Program-made: the position numbers and the translations under genes
Assembly: GCA_029261055.1 (NCBI GenBank)
Contig: JAJDCA010000014.1
Span: 143,984-207,983, forward strand
DNA: 64,000 bases
DNA from: Candidatus Omnitrophota bacterium
GTDB lineage: Bacteria > Omnitrophota > Gorgyraeia > Zapsychrales > Zapsychraceae
Direction: 5' to 3'
Notes under the pieces: generated by a model
Databases searched by the model: none
Seen by the model: the letters and a program-made list of their open reading frames with translations, nothing else
What the model was told of the DNA's origin: nothing
Shown here: positions 1 to 59,400 of the stretch, piece by piece
Position numbering within the stretch: position 1 is the first letter of the stretch
Layout: the number at the start of each line of letters is the position of its first letter

Positions 1-563
1 TGCGTAATCCTCGTGAGACCGTACGGGATTTGTCTGAGTCTGTGATGCGGCAAGTCATCGGTGACAGTTCTGTTTCTGAAGCTCTGACGACGCGTCGTGT
101 GGTCATTAATCAAAAAGCCGAAGAAAAATTGCAGGCTATTTTGGATGGGTACGAAAGCGGAATTCAGATTGAACATGTCAAATTACAGGACGTTGACCCA
201 CCGGAAAAAGTGCAACGTTCGTTTAATGAGGTAAATGAGGCTAAGCAGGAAAAAGAGAAAGTCATCAACCAGGCGAGGGAAGCCGAGAATAAGGTTATCC
301 CCGAAGCTAAGGGAAAGGCTGAGAAAACCATCAGGGAATCCGAAGCCTACGCATTGGTACGTGTTAAAAATGCGGAAGGGGATGCGGCAAAATTTTTAGC
401 GACCTGGGAGGCCTACAAATTTTCTAAAGATATTACGCGTAAGCGTATGTATTTAGAGACACTTCAAAAGGTTATTCCTAAAGCCGGTAAAATTTATGTC
501 TTTGAACCAGGGGCAAATAATATTTTACCCTTATTGAAATTAAATGAAGGAGTTCAACAATGA
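1..563 (+). CDS. hflK: HflK (SPFH/band-7 protease modulator), 5'-partial: the frame is open to the window edge
   Basis: Translation matches the HflK C-terminal region (ETLQKV, KIYVF motifs). Its stop overlaps the hflC start by 4 nt (ATGA), and hflC follows immediately. Confidence 0.8.
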   Translation, partial: RNPRETVRDLSESVMRQVIGDSSVSEALTTRRVVINQKAEEKLQAILDGYESGIQIEHVKLQDVDPPEKVQRSFNEVNEAKQEKEKVINQAREAENKVIPEAKGKAEKTIRESEAYALVRVKNAEGDAAKFLATWEAYKFSKDITRKRMYLETLQKVIPKAGKIYVFEPGANNILPLLKLNEGVQQ

Positions 564-1531
564 ATAAAATAAATAAAATATTACCTCTGATTGTCATTAT
601 TTTTGTTTTGATTGGCTCCTTATTTTTCAGTGGGGCTTTGTACACCGTGGATGAAACGCAACAGGTTATTGTGACTCGTTTTGGTGAGCCAATGGGCCAA
701 GCGATTACAGAAGCTGGATTACATTTTAAAATGCCGTTTGTTGAAAAGGCGACGTATTTTGAAAAACGACTTCTTCAATGGGACGGTGACCCGAATGAGA
801 TTCAGACGCTGGGAAAGAGATACATCTGGGTCGATACCACCGCCCGCTGGCGTATTGTCGATGCTCTAAAGTTTATGCAAACAGTGCGATCTGAGGTTAG
901 TGCTCAGGCACGGTTGGATGACATTATTGACGGAGCCACGCGCGATGTGATTGCCAGTCACAAACAGATCGAGTCCTTGCGTGATACCAACCGGCTGGTT
1001 GAAGAATTTAAAAAAGGAAAAATAAATGATGTTGATTTTGAGGTACAGCAAACCGCATTTGAGGCAATCAAATATGGGAGGGAAGGATTGAGCCGTATGA
1101 TTTTGAAACAATCCTCCAAAGCCATCTCGGAATTCGGGATTGAACTTGTCGATGTCAGGATTAAACGTATTAATTACATTCAGGATGTCCGCACCAAGGT
1201 GTATGACCGGATGATTTCCGAGCGTAATGCAGCAGCCGCCCGTTACCGCTCCGAAGGACAAGGAAAAAAAGCGGAAATTGAAGGGCAGATGGGGAAGGAA
1301 CTCAAGCGTATTCAGGCCGAGGCTTACAAAACAGCACAGGTCGTTAAAGGGGATGCTGACGCCAAGGCTATTAAAATTTACGCCAGTGCCTACAACAAAG
1401 ATCCGGACTTTTATGCGTTTCTTAAAACGTTAGAAAGTTACAAATACACCATCAATAAAGACACCACGCTTATGCTCACGACAGACAATGAATTCTACGA
1501 ACAGTTGCAAGGGGCAGGTAAGGCGCAATAA
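560..1531 (+). CDS. hflC: HflC (SPFH/band-7, FtsH modulator)
   Basis: 323 aa with an N-terminal TM helix followed by a band-7 domain (YTVDETQQVIVTRFGE). Classic hflK-hflC pairing with a 4-nt overlap. Confidence 0.85.
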   Translation: MNKINKILPLIVIIFVLIGSLFFSGALYTVDETQQVIVTRFGEPMGQAITEAGLHFKMPFVEKATYFEKRLLQWDGDPNEIQTLGKRYIWVDTTARWRIVDALKFMQTVRSEVSAQARLDDIIDGATRDVIASHKQIESLRDTNRLVEEFKKGKINDVDFEVQQTAFEAIKYGREGLSRMILKQSSKAISEFGIELVDVRIKRINYIQDVRTKVYDRMISERNAAAARYRSEGQGKKAEIEGQMGKELKRIQAEAYKTAQVVKGDADAKAIKIYASAYNKDPDFYAFLKTLESYKYTINKDTTLMLTTDNEFYEQLQGAGKAQ

Positions 1532-1540
1532 ACGGTTTTT

Positions 1541-4333
1541 ATGAAATCTGATTCTCTCATCATTCGTGGAGCTAAGGAACATAATTTAAAAAATATTGAC
1601 CTCGTCATACCACGCAATAAGTTTGTGGTTGTGACGGGGTTAAGCGGTTCAGGCAAATCTTCTTTGGCGTTTGATACCATTTATGCTGAGGGGCAGCGGC
1701 GGTATGTTGAAAGCCTTTCGGCGTATGCCCGCCAGTTTTTAGAGCAGTTGAAGAAGCCGGATGTGGAATCCATTGAAGGTCTTTCGCCCACCATTTCCAT
1801 CGAACAAAAAACTACCAGTCGCAATCCTCGTTCAACGGTGGCTACTCAGACAGAAATTAATGATTATTTACGTTTATTGTTTGCCCGTATCGGCACGCCG
1901 TATTGTTACAAATGTGGCAAGGTTATTGATCGTCAAACGATTCAGGAAATCGTTAAGCAGATTTTGGTTTACAAAGAAGGCACCGCTTTATTGCTTTTAG
2001 CTCCGCTTATTCGAGGGCGCAAAGGGGAGTATCGCAATATTGCCAATCAAGTCGCTAAGGCTGGTTTTGCGCGTTTAAGAGTGGATGGTCAGATTTATGC
2101 CGTCGAAGATACGATTCAATTGGACAAATACAAAGTGCATCATATTGAAGTTGTGGTGGATCGTCTTAAGATTAAACCGGGCATAAAAAAGCGGCTTACC
2201 GATTCTATTGAAACAGCGCTTCAGACAGGTCAGGGCATCATGATGGTAGATTTTGATGGCAAGTTTCCTGAAAAACTTTTTAGTGAAAAATATGCCTGTG
2301 TAGATTGTGGTGTCAGTATTACGGAGGTGGAACCGCGCACGTTTTCTTTTAATTCTCCCTATGGGGCGTGTCCGGAATGTAAGGGGCTGGGGACCAAGAT
2401 GGAAATTGATCCGGAGCTGTTGGTGCCGGATATTTCTAAGGCGTGGGTGAATGCGATTGCTCCTGCTAAAAAAGGACGGCGGGGATATTTGATGTATTAC
2501 CGGGCTGTGATGAGGGAATTAGCTAAACTTCATAAAATGGATGCGTATGCGCCATTTGAAGAGTTGAATTCAGAAATGAAAAATGTTATTTTTTATGGTT
2601 CCGAAGACGTGATTTTTGGCAAGCCGTACGAGGGGGTGGCTAATTATTTGGAGCGACTATTTATTGAGACGGACAGCAGTTGGCTTAAAGACGAAATTTC
2701 ACGCTACATGTCGGTTTTGCCCTGTCTTGTGTGTAAAGGTTCACGGTTTAGAAAGGAATCGTTGGCAGTAAAGGTTGCAGGAAAGAATATTGCGGAAGTG
2801 ACTTTATTTTCGATTGAGAAAGCCAAAGAGTTTTTTTCTAATTTAAAGTTGTCTAAAGATAAGGCCATTATTAGCGAGGCGATTTTTAAAGAAATTAATC
2901 GGCGCCTGGATTTTTGTTTGAATGTGGGATTAGGGTATTTGACGTTAGATCGTAAAAGTTCCACGCTTTCCGGCGGGGAGGCGGAGCGTATTCGTCTGGC
3001 GACTCAGGTAGGGTCCGGACTGGTGGGGGTGATTTACATTTTAGATGAACCCAGTATTGGTTTGCATGCCAAAGACAATGAGCGGCTTTTATCTACGCTG
3101 CATGCTTTGCGGGATATGGGGAATACGTTGATTGTGGTTGAGCACGATGAAGAAACGATTCGCCGATCAGATTACATCATCGACCTTGGTCCCGGAGCAG
3201 GCGTTCATGGGGGTGAGGTGACTTACAAAGGCACTGTGGCGGGGGCACTTAAATCTAAGGGTTCCTTGACGGGGCAATATTTGAGCGGCCGGTTAAAAAT
3301 TTCCAAACCAACGACACGGCGCGAGAGTGTTAAGGCGAATCAAATTAAAGTTTTTGGGGCTAAAGAAAATAATCTTAAAAATATTACGGTGAGTGTGCCT
3401 TTGGGCACCTTTACATGTATCACCGGTGTTTCAGGTTCAGGAAAGTCGACTTTGGTGGATGAAATTTTGTACAAAGTTTTAGCGCAGAAAATTTATCATT
3501 CCAAAGAAAAACCTGGAAAACATCGTAAGGTTACCGGGGTTGAGCATATTGATAAAGTGATTGAAGTTGACCAATCGCCGATCGGTCGTACGCCGCGGTC
3601 TAATCCAGCGACGTACACAGGGATTTTTAGCCATATTCGTGATTTATTCAGCCGGTTGCCGGAATCTAAAATGCGGGGATACAAACCCGGACGTTTTAGT
3701 TTTAATGTGAAGGGTGGACGGTGTGAGGCTTGCAAAGGAGATGGAATTTTAAAAATTGAAATGCATTTTTTGCCGGATGTGTATGTGGAATGTGAAGTAT
3801 GCCATGGGGCGAGGTTTACGGAACAGACGTTGGAAGTTGAATTTCACGGGAAAAATATCACGGACATTTTAGGCTTGTCTGTGGTGGACGCTTTGGATCT
3901 TTTTCAAAATATTCCACGTGTTAAGAAAATATTGCAGACCTTAAATGATGTAGGGCTTGGGTACATTAAACTTGGCCAACCGGCAACGACACTTTCCGGT
4001 GGAGAGGCGCAACGGGTGAAGTTGGCGAGTGAATTATGTAAAATGGCAACAGGACGGACATTGTACATTTTGGATGAGCCGACGACAGGATTGCATTTTG
4101 CTGATGTGGAGAAGTTATTGGTTGTTTTACAACGGTTGGTGGATAAAGGGAATACGGTTTTGATAATTGAACATAATTTGGAAGTGATTAAGAATGCGGA
4201 TTATGTTATTGATTTGGGTCCCGAAGGAGGCGATCGAGGTGGTCAAGTCATTTTTGCCGGCTCACCGGAGGCTCTCAGTCAACATAAAACTTCTTACACC
4301 GGGAAGTATTTGCTGGAGGCGCTTAAAAAATAA
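1541..4333 (+). CDS. uvrA: Excinuclease ABC subunit A (UvrA)
   Basis: 930 aa with two ABC ATPase modules (GLSGSGKSSLAFDTIYAEGQRRY and GVSGSGKSTLV), zinc-finger CxxC pairs and LSGGE signature motifs. Confidence 0.95.
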   Translation: MKSDSLIIRGAKEHNLKNIDLVIPRNKFVVVTGLSGSGKSSLAFDTIYAEGQRRYVESLSAYARQFLEQLKKPDVESIEGLSPTISIEQKTTSRNPRSTVATQTEINDYLRLLFARIGTPYCYKCGKVIDRQTIQEIVKQILVYKEGTALLLLAPLIRGRKGEYRNIANQVAKAGFARLRVDGQIYAVEDTIQLDKYKVHHIEVVVDRLKIKPGIKKRLTDSIETALQTGQGIMMVDFDGKFPEKLFSEKYACVDCGVSITEVEPRTFSFNSPYGACPECKGLGTKMEIDPELLVPDISKAWVNAIAPAKKGRRGYLMYYRAVMRELAKLHKMDAYAPFEELNSEMKNVIFYGSEDVIFGKPYEGVANYLERLFIETDSSWLKDEISRYMSVLPCLVCKGSRFRKESLAVKVAGKNIAEVTLFSIEKAKEFFSNLKLSKDKAIISEAIFKEINRRLDFCLNVGLGYLTLDRKSSTLSGGEAERIRLATQVGSGLVGVIYILDEPSIGLHAKDNERLLSTLHALRDMGNTLIVVEHDEETIRRSDYIIDLGPGAGVHGGEVTYKGTVAGALKSKGSLTGQYLSGRLKISKPTTRRESVKANQIKVFGAKENNLKNITVSVPLGTFTCITGVSGSGKSTLVDEILYKVLAQKIYHSKEKPGKHRKVTGVEHIDKVIEVDQSPIGRTPRSNPATYTGIFSHIRDLFSRLPESKMRGYKPGRFSFNVKGGRCEACKGDGILKIEMHFLPDVYVECEVCHGARFTEQTLEVEFHGKNITDILGLSVVDALDLFQNIPRVKKILQTLNDVGLGYIKLGQPATTLSGGEAQRVKLASELCKMATGRTLYILDEPTTGLHFADVEKLLVVLQRLVDKGNTVLIIEHNLEVIKNADYVIDLGPEGGDRGGQVIFAGSPEALSQHKTSYTGKYLLEALKK

Positions 4334-9037: not shown

Positions 9038-9231
9038 TCTTCCTTAAAGCCCTTCTTAAATTTGGTTTAATTTTATTAAAATAATAGAGGATGTTATTGA
9101 CAGAGTACTCCTGGTATTGTCTAATTGTAATGGTATTGTAGAGACAAGGCGGAGCTTCATCTGAGACGTGGCAGCATGATGTTTTTACAGCAAGCATTCA
9201 ACCTGTAGCAAGAGTAAGGTTTTTTTAAAAA

Positions 9232-10752
9232 ATGAAAAAGAGTGAAAAACATTTAGGCGTATTTTGGGGCCATAAATCTATCTATTTGGTCGAATCCTCT
9301 CAGGAAAACCCTCAGAAAATATTTTCTGTTCCTTTTTTCCAAGGTGATCAAGAGCCTATGGGGGCTGATATTTTGGGTGTGGCAGGCTCATCGTTTGCAG
9401 TTTTGATACAAGAGTCTTTACGTACGAATAAAATTTCGCCGTGCACTGTTAATTTATCTTTATCTACGAAGGATATTATTTTTCGTTCTTTTGTCATTCC
9501 ATGGATGTCATCCAGTGAAATTAGAGCCGTGGTGGAATTTGAGGGAAGCAAATATGTTCCGTTTGCTTTGGAAGAACTTTCCTATTCGTACCATGCCAGC
9601 ACATTTATAGACGATGGGACAAAACGCATACGGATTATTTTTGTCGCCATAAAAAAAGATACATTAGAGGAATACATAAAAGTGTTGGAACAGGCCTCTT
9701 TGGAGGTTGATCTTACCGAGCCCGCTTCTTTAAGTCTTATGCGCGCGTTAACACTCAAGAATTTAATTCCTCAAGATCAAACGGTAGCTATTTTAGAAAA
9801 AAGTGAAGTCGCGGGAAGAATTACTATCGTTGATCAAGGCGTTCCCCAATTTGTAAGAGAGGTTTTGTTAAAATCCAGTTCTTCGGATCTTGGGGAGGAA
9901 AATTCAGATGATCTTGCCTTCAATTTTCTTAAAGAAATACGAATATCTTTAGATTATTTTAACCGTCAGGATAAACACCTGGAAGTTAAAAAAATTATTT
10001 TAATCACAGAGAATCCCCCAGAAAGTTTATCCAAATATCTAGAAAGTGACCTTGCCATACCTGTTGTTGCATTTAGTGCACAATCTATTTTGGGGGATGA
10101 AAATTTTAGTGAAATAGACTTTCTTAATGCTTATGGCGTTGGGCTAAATGATGATGTGAATTCACAGGTGGCGTTTTCTCTTTCTCAAAAAAAAATAAAA
10201 CCGCTTAGCTTAGCCGATGTAAGTATTAAAAATATAGCTAACTTTAAAGTTTCGATCATCTCTGTGATTATTTTTATCTTAGTTATTGCCGGTGTTTTTA
10301 TTTTTTCTAACAAAGTCTTGGCAGAGCCTAAAAGCAAAATAGAGGGATTGAATCAAGAATTAGGAAGTTTTAAAGATTTTTCTACAGAAAGCTTAAAAAA
10401 ACAAAATCAAGAAATAAGTTTAAAATTAACGGGTTTTAAAAATGTTCAGATGAGAAATGAAGTGGCCTCTTTTTTAAAAATTATCCCAGGGTTGCTTCCG
10501 GAAGGGACATGGATTAAGGATTTTAATTTGGTTTTTCCTAAAACATCAGAAAAAAGGCTGGCCTTAAATTTTTCTGGATATGTTTATTCAGAAAATATTA
10601 ATGAGCAGTTTAGGGTGGTTAATAAATTATTGGAAAGCTTGAAAGCGAATAAAGGTTTTTCTGAATACTTTGAGAATATTGATCTTAAGAAAATGAATTC
10701 TGAAAGGCTACATAATCATGAGGTAACCTTTTTTAAGGTGCAATGCCAGTGA
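9232..10752 (+). CDS. pilM: PilM-like cytoplasmic actin-fold domain fused to a PilN-like TM and coiled-coil segment (GspL-like architecture)
   Basis: 506 aa: about 330 aa of soluble N-terminal domain, then a TM helix (VSIISVIIFILVIAGVFIF), then a coiled-coil and periplasmic region. It is the first gene of an M-O-P-Q-B-C-pilin cluster. Confidence 0.55.
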   Translation: MKKSEKHLGVFWGHKSIYLVESSQENPQKIFSVPFFQGDQEPMGADILGVAGSSFAVLIQESLRTNKISPCTVNLSLSTKDIIFRSFVIPWMSSSEIRAVVEFEGSKYVPFALEELSYSYHASTFIDDGTKRIRIIFVAIKKDTLEEYIKVLEQASLEVDLTEPASLSLMRALTLKNLIPQDQTVAILEKSEVAGRITIVDQGVPQFVREVLLKSSSSDLGEENSDDLAFNFLKEIRISLDYFNRQDKHLEVKKIILITENPPESLSKYLESDLAIPVVAFSAQSILGDENFSEIDFLNAYGVGLNDDVNSQVAFSLSQKKIKPLSLADVSIKNIANFKVSIISVIIFILVIAGVFIFSNKVLAEPKSKIEGLNQELGSFKDFSTESLKKQNQEISLKLTGFKNVQMRNEVASFLKIIPGLLPEGTWIKDFNLVFPKTSEKRLALNFSGYVYSENINEQFRVVNKLLESLKANKGFSEYFENIDLKKMNSERLHNHEVTFFKVQCQ

Positions 10753-10801
10753 CACTGCGTAACATAAAATATAAATATGTGAATCGAAGCATGAGAGTCT
10801 A

Positions 10802-11407
10802 ATGAATATTAAAGAACTAAGCCAATTTGACGTTAAAGATTTTAAAAATATTGATTTTGAAGAAATTAAGGAGCGTTTTCTTAGCCGGCCAGACTATGCT
10901 ATTGGCGGAACAATCCTTATTGTCGCATTATTTTTGACTTTAACAGTTTACAATAAATATAAATCAGAAAAGGCACATTTAAATCAGCAAATACCTCTTC
11001 TTATTGAAAAATTAGAGGTGGTTGAACATCATAAGAAAATTAAAAAAGAATATGAGGGCTTTGTAAATAGTTTTCCATCTTTTGTTGTTTACGATAAAAT
11101 TATCAATTTATTTTCTAAGATAGCGGCTAAGCACCGCGTTCAAATTACGTCATTTTCTCCAGCTAAACGCGAAGATAATGAATTCATCAGGATGACACAA
11201 GTAACAATGAATGTTACTACAAAAAATTACGATGATTTAGTAAGTTTTATGGAAGCTGTTGGAAATATTTCGGAGGCTCTTAGGCTTACCCATTGGTCTG
11301 GCGGGATGAGGACAGTACAGAGTACTCGCCGGAGGCAACAAACAACAGGTGAAAAAACTATCTGGGCAAATTTTTCAATCGAGGCTGTCCAATTAATTGA
11401 TGAATAA
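10802..11407 (+). CDS. pilO: PilO/GspM-like inner-membrane pilus assembly protein
   Basis: 201 aa with a single TM (AIGGTILIVALFLTLTVY) followed by a periplasmic domain. Position between pilM/N and pilP. Confidence 0.5.
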   Translation: MNIKELSQFDVKDFKNIDFEEIKERFLSRPDYAIGGTILIVALFLTLTVYNKYKSEKAHLNQQIPLLIEKLEVVEHHKKIKKEYEGFVNSFPSFVVYDKIINLFSKIAAKHRVQITSFSPAKREDNEFIRMTQVTMNVTTKNYDDLVSFMEAVGNISEALRLTHWSGGMRTVQSTRRRQQTTGEKTIWANFSIEAVQLIDE

Positions 11408-16606: not shown

Positions 16607-16850
16607 TCAAGTAGAGTAATAAGGGATAAACAAAGGTAAACTACCTGTGAGGGTGGGGCACAAAACTATAGGGTCCCAAGATTAGTGTTGGGATAGCCAA
16701 GTTGCTACCGATAAGTATCGGTGTGAATCATGTGGACCTATTCTACGAAAGAGGTGGAATAGGTTTATTTTTTGGAAGGGAAGAAAAAGAGGACGTGAAA
16801 AGTAATAAAAACACAAATAAACATAAACACAAATTAGGAGGGAAGTAACA

Positions 16851-17279
16851 ATGGAATTGAGAAAATTAAAATCTAAAAAAAGTGGTTTTACATTACTGGA
16901 AATCATCGTGGTTATTATCATTGTTGGTGTTTTAGCTAGTTTAGCTTTACCGCGATTATTTAATACCATTGAACGAGCTCGATCGACAGAAGCATTTACA
17001 TCAATAGGCGTAATTCGTAAATCAGTTGAAAGATGTCTCTATCAAAATAATGCCGCTTTCTGTGGGAATATGACTAATTTAGATCTTCCTGATCCAGGGG
17101 CAATCCCAGGGGCGCATTTTACGTACACTATTGCTAATGTAGCTTTGCCGAACACTGTGACAGTAAAAGCTACACGTCTTGCTAATGTGGATGGTGGTGT
17201 TGCCACAGATTGGATTCAGCTTAAGGTGGATGGTACGGGTATTTTTCGAACCAGTACAACAATTTATGGTGTAAGATAA
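16851..17279 (+). CDS. pilA: Type IV major pilin (class III prepilin signal)
   Basis: Leader MELRKLKSKKSG, cleavage between G and F in GFTLLEIIVVIIIVGVLASLALP with Glu at +5. 142 aa with a C-terminal Cys pair. Confidence 0.85.
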   Translation: MELRKLKSKKSGFTLLEIIVVIIIVGVLASLALPRLFNTIERARSTEAFTSIGVIRKSVERCLYQNNAAFCGNMTNLDLPDPGAIPGAHFTYTIANVALPNTVTVKATRLANVDGGVATDWIQLKVDGTGIFRTSTTIYGVR

Positions 17280-17295
17280 AAAAGGTAAGGGGTCG

Positions 17296-17778
17296 GTGGA
17301 CTATCCATCGATCCCTTATATAAATTTTATGACAAATAATAAATTAAAGATTTCGAAAAAAGGATTCACCTTGGGAGAATTAATGGTGGTGGTGGTGATT
17401 GTGGGCGTCCTTGTGTCCATCGCCGTACCACAATATGGTGCAGCCATTGAAAGGATGAGGGCAGCTGAGGGGATTCAGATTCTAACCTCCTATTTACACG
17501 CTCAAGAGAGTTTTCGGCTAAGAAATGGTGGGACTTATGCCACAAACCTTCAAATTAATCAATTAGATATAATTTTGCCAACAGGTGCTGGAAGCTATTT
17601 TAATGCGCCTACTATCGCTAGTGCTAATCCAATTGTTAGTATTGCACGAAATGGTACTCAAAATCCGACTCCAAATTATGCGCTTACGATTAGTTCAACA
17701 GGGATTGTTTCCTGTAACGATGGAGGTGCAATGACCACTTGTACAAGATTGGGCTGTTCTGCAGGTGTCTGTAATTAA
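17296..17778 (+). CDS. Type IV pilin paralog
   Basis: KKGFTLGELMVVVVIVGVLVSIAVPQY prepilin N-terminus with a 22-aa leader if translation starts at 17296 (RBS aagggg 6 nt upstream). An alternative ATG at 17329 gives a shorter leader. C-terminal disulfide loop CTRLGCSAGVC. Confidence 0.8.
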   Translation: MDYPSIPYINFMTNNKLKISKKGFTLGELMVVVVIVGVLVSIAVPQYGAAIERMRAAEGIQILTSYLHAQESFRLRNGGTYATNLQINQLDIILPTGAGSYFNAPTIASANPIVSIARNGTQNPTPNYALTISSTGIVSCNDGGAMTTCTRLGCSAGVCN

Positions 17779-17808
17779 GCTAAAAATATTGAAGGGAATG
17801 TTAAGATT

Positions 17809-18246
17809 ATGATAATAAATTTTGTGAAAAGAAAGAAAGCCTTTACAATTACAGAACTTATGGTTTCAGTCATCATTATTGGGGTTATTGCTGGATTTGC
17901 GATACCTGATTATTTACGGTCAGTGCGGCGTGCTCATCAACAAGATATGTCTATGCAGCTCACGGCCTTGCATGCAGCGAGTATGATTTATCAATCTCAG
18001 AATGGAACATTTCTTGTAGAGACTAGTTTGCCATTAAATGGAACACCATCTATTAATAACGATTTGGGCATTAATATTATTTCTACAGATGGGACAAATT
18101 ATTCGTACACAAGTGATGGAACTAATTTTACAGCCACAGCAATTTGGAATTTTTCAACTGGCCCAGTAACTTTTCAAGTAGACCAAAGACCTATTTCAAC
18201 AACATCTGTTCCTCCGAATCCTCAATGTACGACAAACTGTTTATAG
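17809..18246 (+). CDS. Type IV pilin-like protein (Ala at -1 of the cleavage site)
   Basis: KKAFTITELMVSVIIIGVIAGFAIPDY: a hydrophobic N-terminal helix with Glu at +5. C-terminal CTTNC pair. Confidence 0.7.
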   Translation: MIINFVKRKKAFTITELMVSVIIIGVIAGFAIPDYLRSVRRAHQQDMSMQLTALHAASMIYQSQNGTFLVETSLPLNGTPSINNDLGINIISTDGTNYSYTSDGTNFTATAIWNFSTGPVTFQVDQRPISTTSVPPNPQCTTNCL

Positions 18247-18271
18247 TGATTTTTGAAGGAAGAAAGAAAAT

Positions 18272-18616
18272 ATGTTAAAAAATTTAAAAAAAGATGGGTT
18301 TTCATCCTTTGTAGAAATTATGATTTCAGCCGTTGTTTTTGCTATTGCTGCGGTTGGAATGTTTTCTATGGTTTCCAAACTCAAACCAAAGGGAGATGCT
18401 TCTGCTAAAAAATTAGAGGCCATGTATGCCGCTAAGAGCATCCTTGATGAGCTTCGTGGAAGCGTGGATGCCCGTACATGGTTAACAGGACCAAATGATT
18501 TATTGCCGGGTGGCGGTGTTCATTCAAAAACAAGAGGTGACGTTACAGTCGAGTATACTGTTACAGATGTTCCCGGTTCAGACCTTCGTCAGGTGAGTAT
18601 GAATGTGATATGGTAA
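18272..18616 (+). CDS. Minor pseudopilin-like protein
   Basis: KKDGFSSFVEIMISAVVFAIAAVG: a prepilin-like N-terminus (G-F, with Glu displaced to +6). 114 aa. Confidence 0.5.
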   Translation: MLKNLKKDGFSSFVEIMISAVVFAIAAVGMFSMVSKLKPKGDASAKKLEAMYAAKSILDELRGSVDARTWLTGPNDLLPGGGVHSKTRGDVTVEYTVTDVPGSDLRQVSMNVIW

Positions 18617-18721
18617 TACCAAATCCATTTATTAAAGTATCCTATTTGAATGGTGCATTTCTCGTTAAAGCGTCGAGAAATACGAAATTAAAATCGGTAT
18701 TATTTAATGGAATTGGTATAG

Positions 18722-19300
18722 ATGAATACTAATCATAAAAAAGCAATGACGCTTGTTGAACTTCTTCTGGCTACAACTTTAATAGGCATTGTTATGTTAG
18801 GCGTTATTGCTGTAACTACCGCAATCAAACAATTTCAACTTTCAGGGGCAGACATGAATATTTCTGCGATGCAAATAACAGGAGCACTCAAACGTATTGC
18901 CAGAGACGCTTCTATTGCCGTCAATTATCCTAACTCACCAGGGACGATTATTGATGCGGGTAGCAATAGTGTTTCTTTTCGTCAGGACCAGGATAGTGAC
19001 CTTTTAACCCAGGCCGATGCCATTTGGGTTATTTATACGGATGGCAGTGATGGGAACCCTCAAACGATCCATAGATGCCAACAGAATGCCCCCAACTCAG
19101 ATCCTGACTTTGGCAATGAATGTTCGCCTGCGAATGCTCAATTTATTATCAACAAAGTCGTTGCCTTTACGCCAGCTTTTGATGCTACGACAGGTTTGTT
19201 TACTGTTGCTGTCACCACACGCAATGACCCGAATAAACCTTTTCATCCCACAAAGAATCCAGAGTTTCAATTAAGTACCGATATCCGATCATATTATTAG
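18722..19300 (+). CDS. Minor pseudopilin-like protein
   Basis: KKAMTLVELLLATTLIGIVMLGV: an N-terminal hydrophobic helix with Glu at +5 relative to an A|M junction. 192 aa. Confidence 0.5.
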   Translation: MNTNHKKAMTLVELLLATTLIGIVMLGVIAVTTAIKQFQLSGADMNISAMQITGALKRIARDASIAVNYPNSPGTIIDAGSNSVSFRQDQDSDLLTQADAIWVIYTDGSDGNPQTIHRCQQNAPNSDPDFGNECSPANAQFIINKVVAFTPAFDATTGLFTVAVTTRNDPNKPFHPTKNPEFQLSTDIRSYY

Positions 19301-19311
19301 AATTTTATTTT

Positions 19312-20052
19312 ATGCACCGTTTTTACTGCCCTGATTCAGATTTTTCATCTTTCCAAATTAAAATTACCCAAAAGGATGAGATTCATCATTTATGCCATGT
19401 TGTGCGGCTTACGCCAGGGGATAATGTTGTCATTTTTGATGGTATTTCTAAAGAGGCAGAGGGGGTAATATTAAACATCACACCTCTAGCTGTTGTTGTG
19501 AAGATTAATTCTATTAAGGAAATTAAAAAAGAAAGTCCATCTATTATTCTGGCTTGCGCGATACCTAAAAAAAGTAAATTTGAAGTTATTATTGAAAAGG
19601 CAACGGAGTTAGGCGTTGATGCTATTATTCCGCTTAAAACACAAAGAACAGAATTTAAGCTAAAAAAAGAGGCCGTGGCCCATAAAAAATGTCGTTATCA
19701 AACAGTAGCCATTAATGCCGCAAAGCAAGCTCAAAGAGTTTCAGTTCCGACGATCCACGATATATCTGATTTTTCTTCAGCGATTGAATATTTAACAAAG
19801 GAGACAGTCGTGTTAATGCCAAGCCTGTTAGGGAATCGCCGGAATTTTTATGAGACCATGGAGGTTATTAAATCTCCAAAAATTATTTCTATTTGCATTG
19901 GTCCTGAGGGAGATTTTACACCGGAAGAATACAAACATGCGCATCAAATGGGATGTATTCCTATCAGCCTGGGTAAAACAGTTTTAAAGGTAGAGACAGC
20001 CGCTATGTGTAGCATGGCCTGTGTTAATACCTATTGGCCAAGAGAAAGATAA
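19312..20052 (+). CDS. rsmE: 16S rRNA (uracil1498-N3)-methyltransferase, RsmE family
   Basis: 246 aa with an N-terminal PUA-like domain and a SPOUT C-terminal domain (ICIGPEGDFTPEE, LGKTVLKVETAA). Confidence 0.8.
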   Translation: MHRFYCPDSDFSSFQIKITQKDEIHHLCHVVRLTPGDNVVIFDGISKEAEGVILNITPLAVVVKINSIKEIKKESPSIILACAIPKKSKFEVIIEKATELGVDAIIPLKTQRTEFKLKKEAVAHKKCRYQTVAINAAKQAQRVSVPTIHDISDFSSAIEYLTKETVVLMPSLLGNRRNFYETMEVIKSPKIISICIGPEGDFTPEEYKHAHQMGCIPISLGKTVLKVETAAMCSMACVNTYWPRER

Positions 20053-22132
20053 TATTGTGAAACAGTTTTTAAAAACAGTAAAACTTGAAAAGATTTTTTT
20101 TCTTTTTATTTTTCTCTTGGGATGGATTATTTACTCCAATACATTTAACAGTAGCTTTCACTTTGATGATCAAATTTTTATTGTTAACAACCCGTCGATC
20201 CGAACCCTTTTTCCTTCAAAAATATTAGATATACTAGCCTTTGGTGAAAAAAATCGTTTTATTGCTTTTCGCACATTTGCTTTGAATTATCATTTTCATA
20301 AGCTTGATGTTTTTGGATATCATATGATAAATTTTATGATTCATTTAATTACATCAGTTTTGGTGTGGTGGTTCGTGAGGTTGCTATTGTCCACCTTCCG
20401 ATGTGAGAAGTTACGACCATATGCCTCTACGATTGCTATTTTTACAGCTTTGTTATTTGTTGCTCACCCTGTTCAAACAGGGGCTGTGACATATATTACA
20501 CAGAGATTTGCTTCGTTAGTGGCATTATTCTATTTGCTGTGTGTGTGTTTGTATGTGAAAGGTCGATGTTCAGAAACACGATTAATCGCATCGTTACATT
20601 TTTGTGGTGCTATCGTGGCTGGCATGTTAGCTATGTTTACAAAAGAAAATGCTTTTACATTGCCTTTTGCTATTTTGATGATTGAATTTTGTTTGTTGCG
20701 ACAAAAAATACACACAAAGAAAGTAAATATGAAATTGTGCGGGGTGTTCGTTCTGTGCGCTTTGTTGTTTGTTTTGATCCTGCAATCACTTTTTCCCTTT
20801 GATTGGTGGTATCATATTTTATTTAATTCTAAAGGGCTTTCAGAATCCCATGATAATGAAATTATTACAAATTGGACGTATTTCTTTACGCAATTTCGTG
20901 TAATAGTCGCCTATTTAAAACTTTTATTTTTTCCCATCGGGCAAAATTTTGATTATGATATTGCGGCTTCCCATAGTTTTTTTGAATGGCCTGTCTTAGG
21001 CTGTTTTTTTATTCTTTTAGGGATTATTATCTATGCTTTAAAAATATTCCAACGCTACCCTTTGGTTTCTGTTGGAATTTTTTGGTTTTTTATAACCCTT
21101 TCTCTAGAATCAAGTATTTTTCGTATTGATAATTTAATGTATGAGCACCGTCTTTATTTACCATCGGTTGGGTTTTTCTTAGCATTTTGTGTTGGATGCC
21201 ATCGCTTAATAGGTAATTATAAAATACGTATTGTTTTTTTGAGTCTAATTGTAGGTGTTTTTTCTTTACTAACCTATCAACGTAATAAGGTTTGGGAAAA
21301 TGATATGACCTTATGGCAAGATGTGGTCAAGAAATCTCCACATAAATCAAGGGCGCATATGAGCTTGGGAGAAGCCTATATGAGGCAAGGAGATGATATG
21401 CAAGCAGTGACCCACTTTAATAAAGCCATAGAACTACATCCAAATGATGATGCTTCTTACAATAATCTTGGGTTAATTGATTTGAAAAATAAACAATATG
21501 ACGAAGCTTTAAGTAATTTTAAAAAGGCTTTGTCCATTAATCCAGATTTAGTTTTCGTAAATAATAATGTGGGGGTGTGTTATTTGATGAAGGGGGATCT
21601 TGATAAGGCTGAACAAGCATTTTTGCGTGCCATTGAGGAAGAATTTGGCTATCGAAAACCATATTATTATTTAGCAAATATTTATGTTAGTCAGGGGAAA
21701 AAGCAAAAAGCCATTGAAATGTATAAAAAAGTTATCAGGAATTATCCTGATGATACGGAAAGTTTATTTGCCTTAGTTAATTTATATTTTGATGAAAAAT
21801 ATTCAACGGAAGCTCTACAAATAGGGCATTTGATTTTAAAAAATGTGAATGATGTAAGCATACTAACAAATACCGGGAGCATATTTGCACAAAATCAGCA
21901 GCATTCTATGGCGTATGAATTGTATACGAAAGCCTTAAAAAAGGATTCCGGTTACAAAAGTGTATATCTTGAATTAGGTAAATTATTAGGCAATAGAGGG
22001 CGTTTTTCCGAAGCGATATCTGTATGGGAAAAAGGGCTTAGGATTACCCCAGGAGATAAGGTTTTGCAAGATCATATTAGACAGGGAAAGGCTTTACTCG
22101 AAAATAGTCTGACAAGTCCGGTAAGTCCTTGA
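20021..22132 (+). CDS. Polytopic membrane protein with C-terminal TPR repeats (PMT/ArnT-like glycosyltransferase-fold N-domain suspected)
   Basis: GTG start overlapping the rsmE 3' end by 32 nt. About 420 aa with ten or more TM helices, then TPR repeats (AHMSLGEAYMRQGD, YNNLGLIDLKNKQYDEAL and similar). Confidence 0.55.
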   Translation: MLIPIGQEKDNIVKQFLKTVKLEKIFFLFIFLLGWIIYSNTFNSSFHFDDQIFIVNNPSIRTLFPSKILDILAFGEKNRFIAFRTFALNYHFHKLDVFGYHMINFMIHLITSVLVWWFVRLLLSTFRCEKLRPYASTIAIFTALLFVAHPVQTGAVTYITQRFASLVALFYLLCVCLYVKGRCSETRLIASLHFCGAIVAGMLAMFTKENAFTLPFAILMIEFCLLRQKIHTKKVNMKLCGVFVLCALLFVLILQSLFPFDWWYHILFNSKGLSESHDNEIITNWTYFFTQFRVIVAYLKLLFFPIGQNFDYDIAASHSFFEWPVLGCFFILLGIIIYALKIFQRYPLVSVGIFWFFITLSLESSIFRIDNLMYEHRLYLPSVGFFLAFCVGCHRLIGNYKIRIVFLSLIVGVFSLLTYQRNKVWENDMTLWQDVVKKSPHKSRAHMSLGEAYMRQGDDMQAVTHFNKAIELHPNDDASYNNLGLIDLKNKQYDEALSNFKKALSINPDLVFVNNNVGVCYLMKGDLDKAEQAFLRAIEEEFGYRKPYYYLANIYVSQGKKQKAIEMYKKVIRNYPDDTESLFALVNLYFDEKYSTEALQIGHLILKNVNDVSILTNTGSIFAQNQQHSMAYELYTKALKKDSGYKSVYLELGKLLGNRGRFSEAISVWEKGLRITPGDKVLQDHIRQGKALLENSLTSPVSP

Positions 22133-22139
22133 TAATACA

Positions 22140-22168
22140 TTGACAATGTATTCGGGCTCAGGTATAAT
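22140..22168 (+). promoter_or_regulatory. Consensus sigma70 promoter of recA with a palindrome overlapping the -35 box
   Basis: TTGACA (22140-22145), an exactly 17-nt spacer, then TATAAT (22163-22168), about 80 nt upstream of the recA ATG. The 13-bp perfect palindrome ACATTGACAATGT (22137-22149; TACATTGACAATGTA over 22136-22150 is palindromic except at the central base) overlaps the -35 box. Confidence 0.6.
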
Positions 22169-22250
22169 TTTTTTCTTTTAAAGGAACCCCACACAAAATG
22201 ATTTCCCCATGGAAAATGAATTGTATTAATAATAGTTAAGGGAGGGTGTT

Positions 22251-44107: not shown

Positions 44108-44392
44108 ATGATTAGCGACAAGGATGTTAAGTACATTGCAGGGTTAGCCAGAATTCATTTGGAAGATGATCAAGTAACGCATTTGACAAAGGATTTGGAA
44201 GGTATTCTGCATTACATTGAAAAACTGAATAAATTAGATGTGACCCAAGTTGATCCGACCAGTCATGTATTACCTCTTAAGAATGTTTACCGTGAAGATG
44301 AAGTGAAACCTTCCTTATCTCAAGAAGAGGTTTTAAAATTTTCTGTGGAACAACGAGATGGATCTTTTAAAGTACCCAAGGTTATTGAATGA
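44108..44392 (+). CDS. gatC: Glu-tRNA(Gln)/Asp-tRNA(Asn) amidotransferase subunit C
   Basis: 94 aa starting [22 protein letters not shown]. The gatC-gatA-gatB order is intact. Confidence 0.85.
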
Positions 44393-45831
44393 AGCTTAAC
44401 GCATTAACAGCCCACGAAATTTTAGATCTTATCAAGGATAAACAAACGACTCCGCAAGCTGTTTTGGATGAAGTCCAGCAACATATTAAACAGTCTGACA
44501 AAGATGTTCATGCGTATGTGCGGCTTGCCAAAAATTCTAATATTTCTGACGTCTCCGTAGATCAGAATGCTATTCCAATTCCCATTGGTATTAAAGATAA
44601 TATTTGTATTAAGGGCGAAGAAACGACATGTTGTTCAAAACTTTTGACAGGGTTTAAACCCCCTTACAATGCCACGGTGATTGAAAAGTTAAAGGCTTCG
44701 GGGGCGATGTTTGTCGGACATACAAACATGGATGAATTTGCTTTTGGTTCTTCGACGGAAAATTCTTTTTACGGTGTGACGCATAATCCATGGAATTTGG
44801 AATGTGTCCCTGGTGGTTCCAGTGGTGGGTCGGCTGCTGCTGTTGCGGCGAATGAAGCTATTTGGGCGATTGGATCAGATACTGGAGGATCGATTCGTCA
44901 ACCGGCCTCTTTTTGTGGTGTTGTTGGATTAAAACCAACGTATGGTCGTGTATCGCGTTACGGCCTTATTGCCTTTGCTTCAAGTTTAGATCAAATCGGT
45001 CCGCTCACTAAGGATGTGACGGATTCCGCTTTGTTATTAAATATTCTTGCCGGTCATGATTCTAAGGATTCTACATCGGTTGATCAACCTGTGCCGGATT
45101 ACACAAAGGCACTGACAAAGGATGTTAAAAATCTTAAAATCGGGGTGCCTAAAGAATATTTTGTTGAGGGAATGGATGCAGAAGTCAAAGCCTCTGTGAT
45201 GCAATCCATTGAAGTCCTTAAACAATGTGGCGCTCAATTTGTAGATGTTTCTTTGCCGCATACAGAATATGCGGTAGCGACGTATTACATTATTGCTACG
45301 GCTGAGGCCAGTTCTAATTTAGCGCGCTTTGATAGTGTGCAATATGGTTTGCGCCAGAATCCGGCCCAAAAACGCAAGACGACTCTTGTGGATATGTATG
45401 AAGAGTCGCGCAGTGTTGGATTTGGCGAAGAAGCTAAACGGCGAATTATGTTAGGAACCTATTCACTTTCTTCAGGATATTACGATGCGTATTATTTAAA
45501 AGGGCTTAAAGTCAGGACATTGATCAAGAATGATTTTGATAAAGCGTTTGAAAGCGTAGATGCGATTATTACGCCGACCTCACCGACAACAGCTTTTAAG
45601 ATAGGGGCCCGTGCAAAAAATCCTTTAGATATGTATCTTTCAGATATCTACACCATTTCGGCTAATTTGAGTGGCATTCCAGGCATATCTATTCCTTGCG
45701 GATTTTCTAAAGAAGGCTTACCAATTGGGTTGCAGATTTTAGCCAAACCTTTTGATGAAGAAATGTTGTTCCGTATTGCATACACGTTTGAGCAGAACAC
45801 GGAGTGGCATAAAAAGAAAGTTGGGTTTTAA
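44389..45831 (+). CDS. gatA: Glu-tRNA(Gln) amidotransferase subunit A
   Basis: Amidase signature ([25 protein letters not shown]). Confidence 0.95.
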
Positions 45832-45835
45832 TTAC

Positions 45836-45888
45836 GGGCATGATAAATCATGCCCGTACGGGGGGGTGTCATTTGTAGGGGCATGATT
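45836..45888 (+). repeat. Two tandem near-identical hairpins in the gatA-gatB spacer
   Basis: gggcatga-taaa-tcatgccc (45836-45855) and gggcatga-ttca-tcatgccc (45869-45888). The 8-bp stems are identical and they are separated by a G-rich 13-nt linker (45856-45868). Confidence 0.6.
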
Positions 45889-45917
45889 CATCATGCCCTT
45901 TAACGCCATTTAATTTT

Positions 45918-47357
45918 ATGAAATACGAAACAGTCATCGGTCTTGAAGTTCATTTGCAGTTGAGTACAAATACAAAGATTTTTTGTGGTTGTGCAAATAA
46001 GTTTGGTGAAGCGCCCAATACATTGACGTGTCCAGTTTGTTTGGGGCTTCCGGGAAGTCTTCCCGTCGTTAATAAAAAAGTTCTAGAGTACGGTATCAAG
46101 ATAGGTTCTGCTTTAAATTGTAAAATTAATTCTTTTGTAAAATTTGATCGTAAGAATTATTTTTATCCGGATTGTCCTAAAGATTACCAAATTTCTCAAT
46201 TTGATTTTCCTATTGCCTATGATGGCTTTGTTACTATTCCAATGGATGACAATGGAGAGAAAAAAATAACTATTCATCGTGCGCATTTAGAAGAAGATGC
46301 TGGAAAGCTTATTCATGATGCGCAAGCCAATTGTAGCTTAGTGGATTACAATCGAACGGGAACGCCTTTGGTGGAAATTGTTTCAGATCCAGATCTCCGG
46401 TCGCCTCAAGAGGCTTACGATTATTTGCAGGTTTTAAAATTAACACTGCAATATTTAAATGTCTCTGATTGTGATATGGAAAAAGGGAGTCTGCGATGTG
46501 ATGCTAATATTTCTATCCGCGAACAAGGCGATACCAAATTAGGAACTAAAACAGAATTAAAAAATATGAATTCTTTTAAGGCGGTTAAAGTAGCCTTGGA
46601 ATACGAAGAAAATCGCCAGCGGCAAGTTGTCGAAGCTGGTGATCGTGTTGTTCAGGAAACACGGTTATGGGACGATGCTAAAAATATGACATTGGTCATG
46701 CGTAGCAAAGAAGAAGCCCATGATTACCGTTATTTTCCAGAGCCGGACTTAGTGCCGTTTATTCAAGATGAAAAAATTATTGAAGAAATTCGCCAATCCA
46801 TTCCTGAACTTCCTGCGCAAAAATTAGAACGGGTTATTAAGGAATACCAAATTTCAGAATATGATGCAAAGATCATTATTCAGGATGCGTGTTTGGCTGG
46901 TTTTTTTGAAAATTGCACCAAGTATTACAAGGATACAAAGAAAATCTGTAATTGGATGAATGGAGCATTGCTTCAGGAAATCAATAGCCGCAAAACCACC
47001 ATTACAGACATAACATTAAAACCTGAAGACTTTTCGCTTTTGATTAAAAAAGTTGAGGAGGGGCTTATTAGTAATTTAGCCGGCAAAGATGTTTTGAAAT
47101 TTATGCTGGACACCGGAAAATCTGCCGATGTTCTTATTGAAGAAAAAGGATTAGCTCAAGTCTCTGACGACGGAGCTTTAAAAGAAATTATTCAGCAGGT
47201 TATTAGTGAAAACGAAAAAGTCGTTCAACAAATCAAAGAGGGAAAAGATAGCGCTGCTGGCTTTTTAGTCGGTCAAGCCATGAAAAAATCCAAAGGCAAA
47301 GCAAATCCCAAAAAAGTGGGTGAATTGATACGACAAATTTTAAAGGGGGATTCTTAA
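45918..47357 (+). CDS. gatB: Glu-tRNA(Gln) amidotransferase subunit B
   Basis: YETVIGLEVHLQL, and a C-terminal YqeY-like domain. Confidence 0.95.
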   Translation: MKYETVIGLEVHLQLSTNTKIFCGCANKFGEAPNTLTCPVCLGLPGSLPVVNKKVLEYGIKIGSALNCKINSFVKFDRKNYFYPDCPKDYQISQFDFPIAYDGFVTIPMDDNGEKKITIHRAHLEEDAGKLIHDAQANCSLVDYNRTGTPLVEIVSDPDLRSPQEAYDYLQVLKLTLQYLNVSDCDMEKGSLRCDANISIREQGDTKLGTKTELKNMNSFKAVKVALEYEENRQRQVVEAGDRVVQETRLWDDAKNMTLVMRSKEEAHDYRYFPEPDLVPFIQDEKIIEEIRQSIPELPAQKLERVIKEYQISEYDAKIIIQDACLAGFFENCTKYYKDTKKICNWMNGALLQEINSRKTTITDITLKPEDFSLLIKKVEEGLISNLAGKDVLKFMLDTGKSADVLIEEKGLAQVSDDGALKEIIQQVISENEKVVQQIKEGKDSAAGFLVGQAMKKSKGKANPKKVGELIRQILKGDS

Positions 47358-57783: not shown

Positions 57784-59025
57784 CTACTTGGTTTGTTTGT
57801 GGTTTACAAGTTTTTGCACGACCATGCTGCCGATGGTGTCGCCTTCGACATTGACGGTGGTGCGGATAGCATCAAGGATGCGGTCGATGGGGAGAAGGAT
57901 GGCAATCGCTTCAGCCGGGAGGCCGACGGATTGCAGGACCATCACCATCGTTACCATGCCGGCACTTGGAATGCCTGGTGCACCAATGGCGGCAATGATG
58001 GCGGTGAAAAAGACAACGAGTTGTTGAACAATATTAAGATCAATACCCATGATGTTGGCCACAAAAAGAGCAGCCACGGCTTCGTAAAGAGCGGTGCCGT
58101 CCATGTTAATGGTGGCCCCTAAGGGCAGAACAAATCCAGCCACATCTTTGTCGACTTTTAAATTGTTTTCGACACAACGCATGGTAATCGGCAGTGTCGC
58201 AGAACTTGAACTTGTTGAGAACGCTGTTACGAGAGCTTCACGAATTCCGCCTAAGAATTTTAAAGGGCTGAATTGTGTGACGGCAAACAAGATTGTTGGT
58301 AGAGTTACAATGCCATGAAATAGTGTAGCCCCAATCACGACGGCCATGAATTTACCTAGAGCAGACAGGAGTGTGACGTCTTGTGTCGCAATTAATTTTA
58401 TCAAAAGGGCCATGATGCCGATGGGGGCAATACGCATGATCCAGCCGACCATCATCATGATGAGCTCAAAAAATTCATTGAGAATGTTAAGGATATTTTT
58501 AGCTTTTTGACCAGCCATGACAAGGGCAATACCTAAAAGTAAGGCAAATAAAACGGTGGGTAAAACTTTTCCTTGAGCCATGGCTGCAAAAGGATTCATA
58601 AAGAGATTAGAAAAAAATGTTTGAATGAATTGAGAGAGCGTAACAGAGTCAGCAGAAAATGAGGCCATTGCATCCTGAAATAAAGCAACTTCAAGGCCAA
58701 CGCCGGGTTTAAATACGTTAACGACAATCAAGCCCAGGAGGACAGAAAGGGCTGTTGTGGAAATAAAATACACAAGGGATAGCTTCCAAACACGATCCAT
58801 TTGCGCGTGTGCCCGCAGGTTAGCAATACCCACGGTAATAGAGGTAAAGACGAGCGGAATCAAAATCATTTTTAAAAGATCAATGAAAATACCGCCTGCA
58901 ATTGTGCAGCCGTAAAGCGTGGGGGAGTAGACCGCATGTTCAGCTCCCAAGCGGCTTAAAATTAGCCCACCGAAAATGCCAATTACGGCGCCAGTCAGGA
59001 TTTGGAAGTTTAAGGAAAGTTTCAT
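57784..59025 (-). CDS. Dicarboxylate/amino acid:cation symporter (DAACS/SDF family)
   Basis: 413 aa with eight TM segments and re-entrant loops (SSSSATLPITMRC, GATINMDGTALYEAVAALFVANI). The substrate is not assignable; a TcyP-like cystine transporter is possible. Confidence 0.8.
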   Translation of the reverse strand: MKLSLNFQILTGAVIGIFGGLILSRLGAEHAVYSPTLYGCTIAGGIFIDLLKMILIPLVFTSITVGIANLRAHAQMDRVWKLSLVYFISTTALSVLLGLIVVNVFKPGVGLEVALFQDAMASFSADSVTLSQFIQTFFSNLFMNPFAAMAQGKVLPTVLFALLLGIALVMAGQKAKNILNILNEFFELIMMMVGWIMRIAPIGIMALLIKLIATQDVTLLSALGKFMAVVIGATLFHGIVTLPTILFAVTQFSPLKFLGGIREALVTAFSTSSSSATLPITMRCVENNLKVDKDVAGFVLPLGATINMDGTALYEAVAALFVANIMGIDLNIVQQLVVFFTAIIAAIGAPGIPSAGMVTMVMVLQSVGLPAEAIAILLPIDRILDAIRTTVNVEGDTIGSMVVQKLVNHKQTK

Positions 59026-59134: not shown

Positions 59135-59172
59135 TAGTTGTGAAATTGCCCTGCGGGGCAACTTCACAAGTC
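59135..59172. promoter_or_regulatory. Inverted-repeat operator-like element, copy 1 of 2
   Basis: TGTGAAATTGCCC-tgcg-GGGCAACTTCACA: 13-bp arms with one mismatch around a 4-bp spacer. Lies in the divergent intergenic region between the DAACS transporter and tolC. Confidence 0.5.
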
Positions 59173-59316: not shown

Positions 59317-59340
59317 AAGTACGTACGCGCGTACGTACTT
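59317..59340. repeat. 22-bp perfect palindrome of alternating purine/pyrimidine
   Basis: AGTACGTACGCGCGTACGTACT (59318-59339) is its own reverse complement; 24 bp if the flanking A/T pair is included. The 16-bp core acgtacgcgcgtacgt is strictly alternating purine/pyrimidine. Confidence 0.7.
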
Positions 59341-59364: not shown

Positions 59365-59400
59365 AGTTATGAAATTGCCCCGTGGGGCAACTTTACAACT
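59365..59400. promoter_or_regulatory. Inverted-repeat operator-like element, copy 2 of 2
   Basis: TATGAAATTGCCC-cgtg-GGGCAACTTTACA, about 90% identical to copy 1 as a direct repeat 226 bp downstream. The core TTGCCC-N4-GGGCAA is perfect in both copies. Confidence 0.5.

Follow-up and report, generated by a model that had tools for sequence, protein, structure and literature searches.

A phylum-conserved consensus promoter overlapped by a non-conserved palindrome at recA of a Candidatus Omnitrophota bacterium

Introduction

In a stretch of 64,000 nucleotides from a Candidatus Omnitrophota bacterium, hereafter called the window, recA is preceded by a sigma-70 promoter whose -35 hexamer lies within an inverted repeat. 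A first-pass annotation of this sequence put forward that the repeat may be a lineage-specific SOS operator and alternatively considered that it may come from the self-complementarity of the -35 region. The question is therefore whether recA is under the control of a repressor in this organism or is driven by a housekeeping promoter that happens to be symmetrical.

Established systems provide models for both cases. In E. coli, recA is likewise transcribed from a strong sigma-70 promoter, with the LexA box as a dyad overlapping the core promoter, and the Gram-positive Cheo box (GAAC-N4-GTTC) also places an operator at the promoter of this gene. In bacteria without LexA, such as Chlamydiae and Epsilonproteobacteria, recA promoters are unregulated. 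Bacteroidetes possess non-canonical LexA-like repressors with the motifs GGA-N5-TCC and CTAA-N5-TTAG, which were defined by their recurrence upstream of several SOS genes in many species and confirmed by EMSA (PMC8565304). They are a precedent for S24-peptidase repressors that are specific to a phylum and act on new palindromes in lineages that were thought to be devoid of an SOS response (PMC8565304).

Results

A consensus sigma-70 promoter precedes recA

The annotated exact match to TTGACA-17 nt-TATAAT upstream of recA was confirmed (Table 1). All twelve hexamer positions agree with the consensus, the spacer falls within 17 ± 1 nt, and the promoter is placed on the same strand as recA with a leader and a Shine-Dalgarno sequence between them, the distance from the -10 hexamer to the recA ATG being about 82-83 nt. 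This is the single 12/12 match on both strands of the window, and none was present in 100 dinucleotide-preserving shuffles; with one mismatch allowed, two matches were found where 0.76 were expected in 64 kb. The perfect promoter is clearly non-random. An independent Logan assembly, a 21-kb contig (L001) that falls within the window, carries the identical sequence; this contig was the sole match of an exact-protein look-up with RecA, and the same look-up with HflC, UvrA and an 831-aa TPR protein gave no record. A divergent promoter on the minus strand was also considered and rejected, as the mirrored TTGTCA lacks a -10 partner at 16-18 nt, where TACCGG is read.

Table 1. Coordinates of the recA promoter, the overlapping palindrome and other features of the window
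Feature	Position (nt)	Strand	Remarks
hflC	560-1531		
uvrA	1541-4333		begins 10 nt after hflC
pilM/pilO genes	9232-11407		
c-di-GMP-I riboswitch	16625-16709	+	Rfam RF01051, 49.7 bits (threshold 35 bits), E=1e-06
Run of small ORFs	16851-19300		
Last small ORF	18722-19300		N-terminal methylation (type IV pilin-like) motif
rsmE	19312-20052		
Gene for 703-aa membrane and TPR protein	20021-22132	+	TGA stop 22130-22132, 1-2 nt before the palindrome
Perfect 19-bp palindrome AATACATTG-A-CAATGTATT	22134-22152		9-nt arms, 100% complementarity, 1-nt centre (repeat finder)
-35 hexamer TTGACA	22140-22145	+	read from sequence; TT.ACA columns invariant and G in 90% of ten Omnitrophota recA upstream regions
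17-nt spacer	22146-22162	+	first 7 nt are the outer part of the right palindrome arm
-10 hexamer TATAAT	22163-22168	+	invariant in 10/10 aligned promoters
-10-to-start-codon region	22169-22250	+	putative transcription start ~22175 and leader of ~75 nt, placed from the -10 position
TTTCCCC box	22202-22208		~40 nt upstream of the Shine-Dalgarno sequence
Shine-Dalgarno sequence GGGAGGG	22241-22247		3 nt before the recA ATG
recA, 342 aa	22251-23279	+	Pfam PF00154 RecA E=5.8e-136, plus RecA_C
recX, 159 aa	23266-23745	+	Pfam RecX_HTH1/2/3; overlaps the recA 3' end by 14 nt
alaS, 886 aa	23742-26402	+	Pfam tRNA-synt_2c E=4e-173; overlaps the recX stop
Mfd/TRCF-like protein, 641 aa	35233-37158		UvrB-interaction, CarD_TRCF_RID, DEAD and Helicase_C domains
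gatA	44389-45831		
Hairpin, 12-nt arms	45833-45858		stem GGGCATGAT
Hairpin, 9-nt arms	45879-45898		stem ATCATGCCC
gatB	45918-47357		
Sodium:dicarboxylate symporter gene	57784-59025	-	
Hairpin-forming repeat, 23 nt	59142-59164		GAAATTGCCCyGyGGGGCAACTT
Perfect 24-bp palindrome AAGTACGTACGCGCGTACGTACTT	59317-59340		divergent intergenic region
Hairpin-forming repeat, 23 nt	59371-59393		GAAATTGCCCyGyGGGGCAACTT
Outer-membrane/RND efflux gene	59502-60974	+	
Outer-membrane/RND efflux gene	61033-window end	+	

The recA gene is probably co-transcribed with recX, and alaS probably belongs to the same operon, as judged from the overlapping reading frames. The order recA-recX-alaS is kept at the Omnitrophota loci L083, L086 and L090, and L087 and L088 keep recA-recX. 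A wider order, rsmE-recA-recX-alaS-hisD and onwards, is common to the closest relatives L083, L086 and L090 and partly to L087 and L088.

The gene for a 703-aa protein, with a hydrophobic, polytopic N-terminal half and TPR repeats at residues 430-600, is situated between rsmE and recA in this lineage only; in the relatives the recA promoter comes immediately after rsmE. A conserved TGATAAT in front of the -35 hexamer marks the exact end of the insertion, and the TGA stop of the inserted gene is part of this sequence. The idea that the protein is a regulator of the RNPP type with helix-turn-helix and TPR domains was discarded, because a polytopic membrane domain without a helix-turn-helix makes up the N-terminal half.

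Within the recA leader, the TTTCCCC box shows no variation among six Omnitrophota sequences (window, L083, L086, L087, L090 and L091), although the leaders range from ~75 to ~225 nt in length. RNAalifold predicts a weak five-pair interaction of the box with the Shine-Dalgarno region, without covariation. The box could serve as a translational control element or as a protein-binding site. A search of the whole window against Rfam gave no match at the recA leader or promoter, its single match being a riboswitch elsewhere, which is described below.

The palindrome stands out by its position

The 13-bp and 15-bp palindromes reported initially are located where they had been placed, and the perfect dyad is longer, comprising 19 bp centred on the A of the -35 hexamer (TTG-A-CA). 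Palindromes with arms of at least 9 nt and loops of at most 4 nt occur at four loci in the window, compared with about 2.2 per 64 kb in a first-order Markov simulation. A palindrome with 9-nt arms is thus not unusual by itself and is notable solely for its position over the recA -35 hexamer. Allowing up to three mismatches, the window contains four copies including the recA site, against 4.6 expected, and the other three reside within coding sequence; a second copy above chance is therefore not present in the 64 kb at this threshold.

Relatives keep the promoter without the dyad

In a collection of 5.8 billion proteins and among the genome-collection matches listed, the closest RecA proteins all stem from Candidatus Omnitrophota/Omnitrophica, and the nearest one apart from the protein itself is 83% identical. 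An alignment of ten recA upstream regions was built from the window and nine distinct Omnitrophota relatives with 67-83% RecA identity, of which L002-L005 came from the genome collection and L083, L086, L087, L090 and L091 were obtained via exact-protein look-ups. The exact sequence TTGACA-17-TATAAT is present in seven of the nine relatives; L003 has a spacer of 18 nt and L004 has TTTACA. Invariant blocks are confined to the two hexamers, the G of the -35 element reaching 90%, and these are kept at orthologous loci while the flanks diverge. Since the hexamers are the sole invariant blocks and the consensus is exact in 7/9 relatives, the promoter is an ancestral feature that selection maintains throughout the phylum. 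The 3' part of the spacer is still recognisably homologous (TTCGGGCTCAGG in the window, TTCGAGCTCATG in L087 and TTCGGGGTCATG in L091).

The palindrome, on the other hand, is found in none of the nine relatives, not even in the closest one, whose RecA is 83% identical. When the arms are compared around the common centre, nine of nine positions are complementary in the window, six in L087, L090 and L091, five in L003 and L004, four in L002, L005 and L083, and three in L086. The inner ATTG/CAAT arms are the AATTGACAAT context of the -35 hexamer that all share, and the outer AA/TT pairs are also found in the closest relatives, which leaves just three lineage-specific pairs, 3-17, 4-16 and 5-15. 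A de novo search for dyads common to the ten upstream regions returned ATTG-N-CAAT alone, plus TGAC-N12-GTCA in three close sequences. The alternative origin of the palindrome that had been considered, namely the self-complementarity of the -35 region (TTGACAA), fits these data better than an operator, as the inner arms are conserved promoter context. The comparison thus establishes the identity of the promoter and its conservation as well as the non-conservation of the dyad.

Seven differences separate the 39-nt promoter from that of the closest relative, L091, and five of them fall on palindrome positions 4, 5, 15, 16 and 17. The columns of these five substitutions vary among the relatives, too. 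At the six outer palindrome positions the match rate in the relatives is 0.35, and by our own calculation the chance of gaining three extra pairs from an ancestral 6/9 state is about 0.26^3 to 0.35^3, that is 2-4%. Such a coincidence is suggestive of function, although it falls short of compelling evidence where a single site has been flagged out of many windows.

Searches for LexA, its motifs and further copies of the dyad

As stated in the first-pass annotation, the window does not contain lexA: tblastn with E. coli and B. subtilis LexA sequences detected no homologue in the window or at the other Omnitrophota loci and yielded matches only at the proteobacterial loci L012, L065 and L074. The assertion that the palindrome differs from the E. 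coli and Cheo-box consensi is equally correct, neither pattern being matched. Within 300 nt upstream of recA, none of the ten Omnitrophota loci contains an exact match to any of 12 LexA patterns, two of which are the Bacteroidetes motifs (PMC8565304). In a control set of 74 recA loci from outside the Omnitrophota, the same patterns revealed boxes appropriate to the taxon at 16. The scan works and is insensitive, so that the result of 0/10 in Omnitrophota constitutes weak negative evidence.

Among these controls, boxes of the E. coli type were found at the recA loci of Alteromonas, Pseudoalteromonas and Steroidobacter, whereas the dyad of the window is not conserved in its relatives. The Cheo box is plain at L021, L034, L035, L042, L069 and L075; all ten Omnitrophota upstream regions lack a GAAC/GTTC element. 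At L082, a recA locus of low G+C content from outside the Omnitrophota (RecA match P0002), CGAACAAAGGTTT directly follows the -10 hexamer at about 9112-9124; it departs at one position from GAAC-N4-GTTC, the Cheo box, and was used as a positive control judged by eye. To our knowledge, none of the operators of Fur, NsrR/Rrf2, PadR, CopY/BlaI (TACANNTGTA), PlcR, 434, Deinococcus RDRM, HexR and NrdR matches the palindrome in sequence and register.

Further copies near DNA-damage genes, which the first-pass annotation had looked to, did not turn up in the 64 kb. The exact 19-bp dyad occurs at 26 places in public metagenomes, in contexts unrelated to that of the window: 18 lie within long open frames and the others are in eukaryote-like or non-coding sequence. 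None of them adjoins a RecA, LexA, UvrA, RecX or Mfd homologue, and no protein is shared with the window. By our own rough estimate, this number is close to the chance expectation. The 15-bp core has at least 120 matches in viral contigs alone and is thus common and uninformative. The apparent co-transcription of uvrA with hflKC, as annotated, agrees with the arrangement of the genes, uvrA following hflC at a distance of 10 nt without a promoter gap of its own. Our literature search retrieved nothing relevant that links LexA or the SOS response to Omnitrophica, Omnitrophota or Velamenicoccus; the co-mention of LexA and Omnitrophica concerns unrelated magnetotactic bacteria.

Other elements in the window and among the search matches

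The c-di-GMP-I riboswitch is situated upstream of the run of small ORFs, which itself follows the pilM/pilO genes. Together with the pilin-like motif in the last of these ORFs, this arrangement suggests a control of pilus or pseudopilus expression by c-di-GMP. In the intergenic region between the divergent symporter and efflux genes, the perfect 24-bp palindrome is flanked by the two hairpin-forming repeats; as an operator candidate it surpasses the palindrome at recA. The 86-nt gap from gatA to gatB holds two hairpins that have one G+C-rich stem in common; they could represent copies of a palindromic repeat, or a site of processing or attenuation inside the operon. The Mfd/TRCF-like protein has about half of the usual Mfd length of ~1150 aa. 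Furthermore, the search pattern matched a metagenome contig unrelated to the window (Ga0209636_10282142, L229), in which two 18-bp palindromes, TTGTCAAT-GT-ATTGACAA, are positioned 30 bp apart at about 1112-1165, directly upstream of an ORF for a small membrane protein. The pair looks like a tandem operator.

Discussion

We consider it rather probable that recA-recX-alaS is headed by a phylum-conserved, strong housekeeping promoter and that the palindrome over its -35 hexamer is probably fortuitous. According to this explanation, the site would be the main sigma-70-type promoter of the three genes, its perfect consensus having been inherited from an ancestor and maintained by selection across the phylum. 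RNA polymerase holoenzyme would bind strongly and start transcription at about position 22175. The core of the palindrome, ATTG-A-CAAT, would be nothing else than the conserved AATTGACAAT context of the -35 hexamer, the outermost AA/TT pairs would derive from the A-rich upstream sequence and the T-rich spacer, and the three remaining pairs (3-5 with 15-17) would have arisen in this lineage in the sole columns of the promoter that vary freely. recA may then be expressed constitutively at a high level, with no repression of the LexA type at its promoter. RecX is an established inhibitor of RecA in other bacteria and, by analogy, the co-transcribed RecX may moderate RecA activity post-translationally. 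Bacteria devoid of LexA likewise combine a housekeeping recA promoter that lacks a conserved operator with regulation at the protein level by RecX; in contrast to them, the absence of lexA refers here only to the readable sequence, namely the 64-kb window and the other Omnitrophota loci.

The coincidence of 2-4% calculated for the three additional pairs counts against a fortuitous origin and is not negligible as evidence for function. It speaks for the less likely but live alternative that the palindrome is a lineage-specific operator on which a dimeric helix-turn-helix repressor bound to AATACATTG-N-CAATGTATT would block the access of RNA polymerase to the -35 hexamer, rendering recA-recX inducible, possibly by DNA damage. 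A perfect 19-bp dyad centred on the -35 hexamer of recA occupies the textbook position of a repressor, and all five substitutions relative to L091 raise its symmetry. The promoter is otherwise maximal in strength, and perfect-consensus promoters are often repressed. Moreover, the lineage-specific TAC/GTA pairs are 11-12 bp apart, a spacing typical for half-sites of dimeric helix-turn-helix proteins such as CTGT-N8-ACAG; as for the E. coli SOS box, the half-site spacing is therefore compatible with a dimeric repressor. Yet the dyad is kept in none of the nine relatives, the substitutions reside in columns that vary freely in all of them, neither a second site nor a regulator gene is present within 64 kb, the known LexA motifs tested do not match, and the exact copies in metagenomes stay at background level in unrelated contexts. 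LexA motifs are normally stable at the level of class or phylum, and recA is a core member of the regulon. As the repressor, some other regulator or an S24-peptidase repressor of the non-canonical kind would come into question; canonical LexA recognising a new motif is the least likely candidate. The last of these is disfavoured because LexA control of recA and the LexA motif are normally conserved beyond the divergence sampled here, and we regard LexA itself as an improbable repressor of this site. Unlike the E. coli box CTGT-N8-ACAG, which the palindrome does not match, the site is accompanied by neither lexA nor a second box in the 64 kb, and its TACA...TGTA half-sites are opposite in orientation to the TACTGTAT...ATACAGTA of E. 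coli. In poorly studied phyla, LexA-like regulators that recognise new motifs continue to be discovered (PMC8565304). Compared with the Bacteroidetes motifs, however, the present case consists of one site in one genome with a different sequence. Since no relative is closer than 83% in RecA identity, an operator acquired recently would not become apparent by comparison, and lexA or a second site could reside elsewhere in the genome, beyond the 64-kb window, which covers part of a source contig of 321 kb (321,631 bp). That this species has recently gained a repressor-controlled recA, with a dimeric regulator on AATACATTG-N-CAATGTATT for which a non-canonical S24 peptidase or a damage sensor of the XRE type is conceivable, appears unlikely to us.

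The close succession of the TPR-protein gene and the palindrome, which begins 1-2 nt past the TGA stop, raises the further possibility that the symmetry acts in RNA, where it would form a hairpin at the 3' end of the upstream mRNA or terminate it. The predicted fold of positions 22110-22190 indeed gives a stem of 7 bp, rich in A/U, that closes a 3-nt loop. Shuffled sequences, however, fold no worse, averaging -13.8 kcal/mol where this region has a minimum free energy of -11.7 kcal/mol (z=+0.69), the stem consists almost entirely of A-U pairs and is not directly followed by a U-tract, and a terminator scan reported nothing at the palindrome. We regard this explanation as extremely improbable. 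For the SOS operator originally proposed, it can be stated that a dyad does overlap the promoter of a core SOS gene in the form of the 19-bp palindrome over the recA -35 hexamer, while conservation and the motif tests that were run do not lend support: a described LexA motif is matched neither in the window nor in the nine relatives, and arm complementarity at recA drops from 9/9 to 3-6/9 in the latter.

For the most part, the finding is ordinary: a housekeeping promoter in front of recA. The perfect TTGACA-17-TATAAT at recA of Omnitrophota indicates that the canonical sigma-70 promoter code is in use in these uncultured bacteria, and the recA promoter offers itself as a reference promoter for the annotation of Omnitrophota genomes. 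As the ten promoters do not share an operator, it is suggested that recA may escape classical SOS control in this clade. If, on the other hand, the palindrome were an operator, it would be one half of a new regulator-motif pair in a phylum without a characterised damage response, and a repressor-controlled recA would, for the first time, point to a DNA-damage regulon in this candidate phylum, one that has its own new operator motif.
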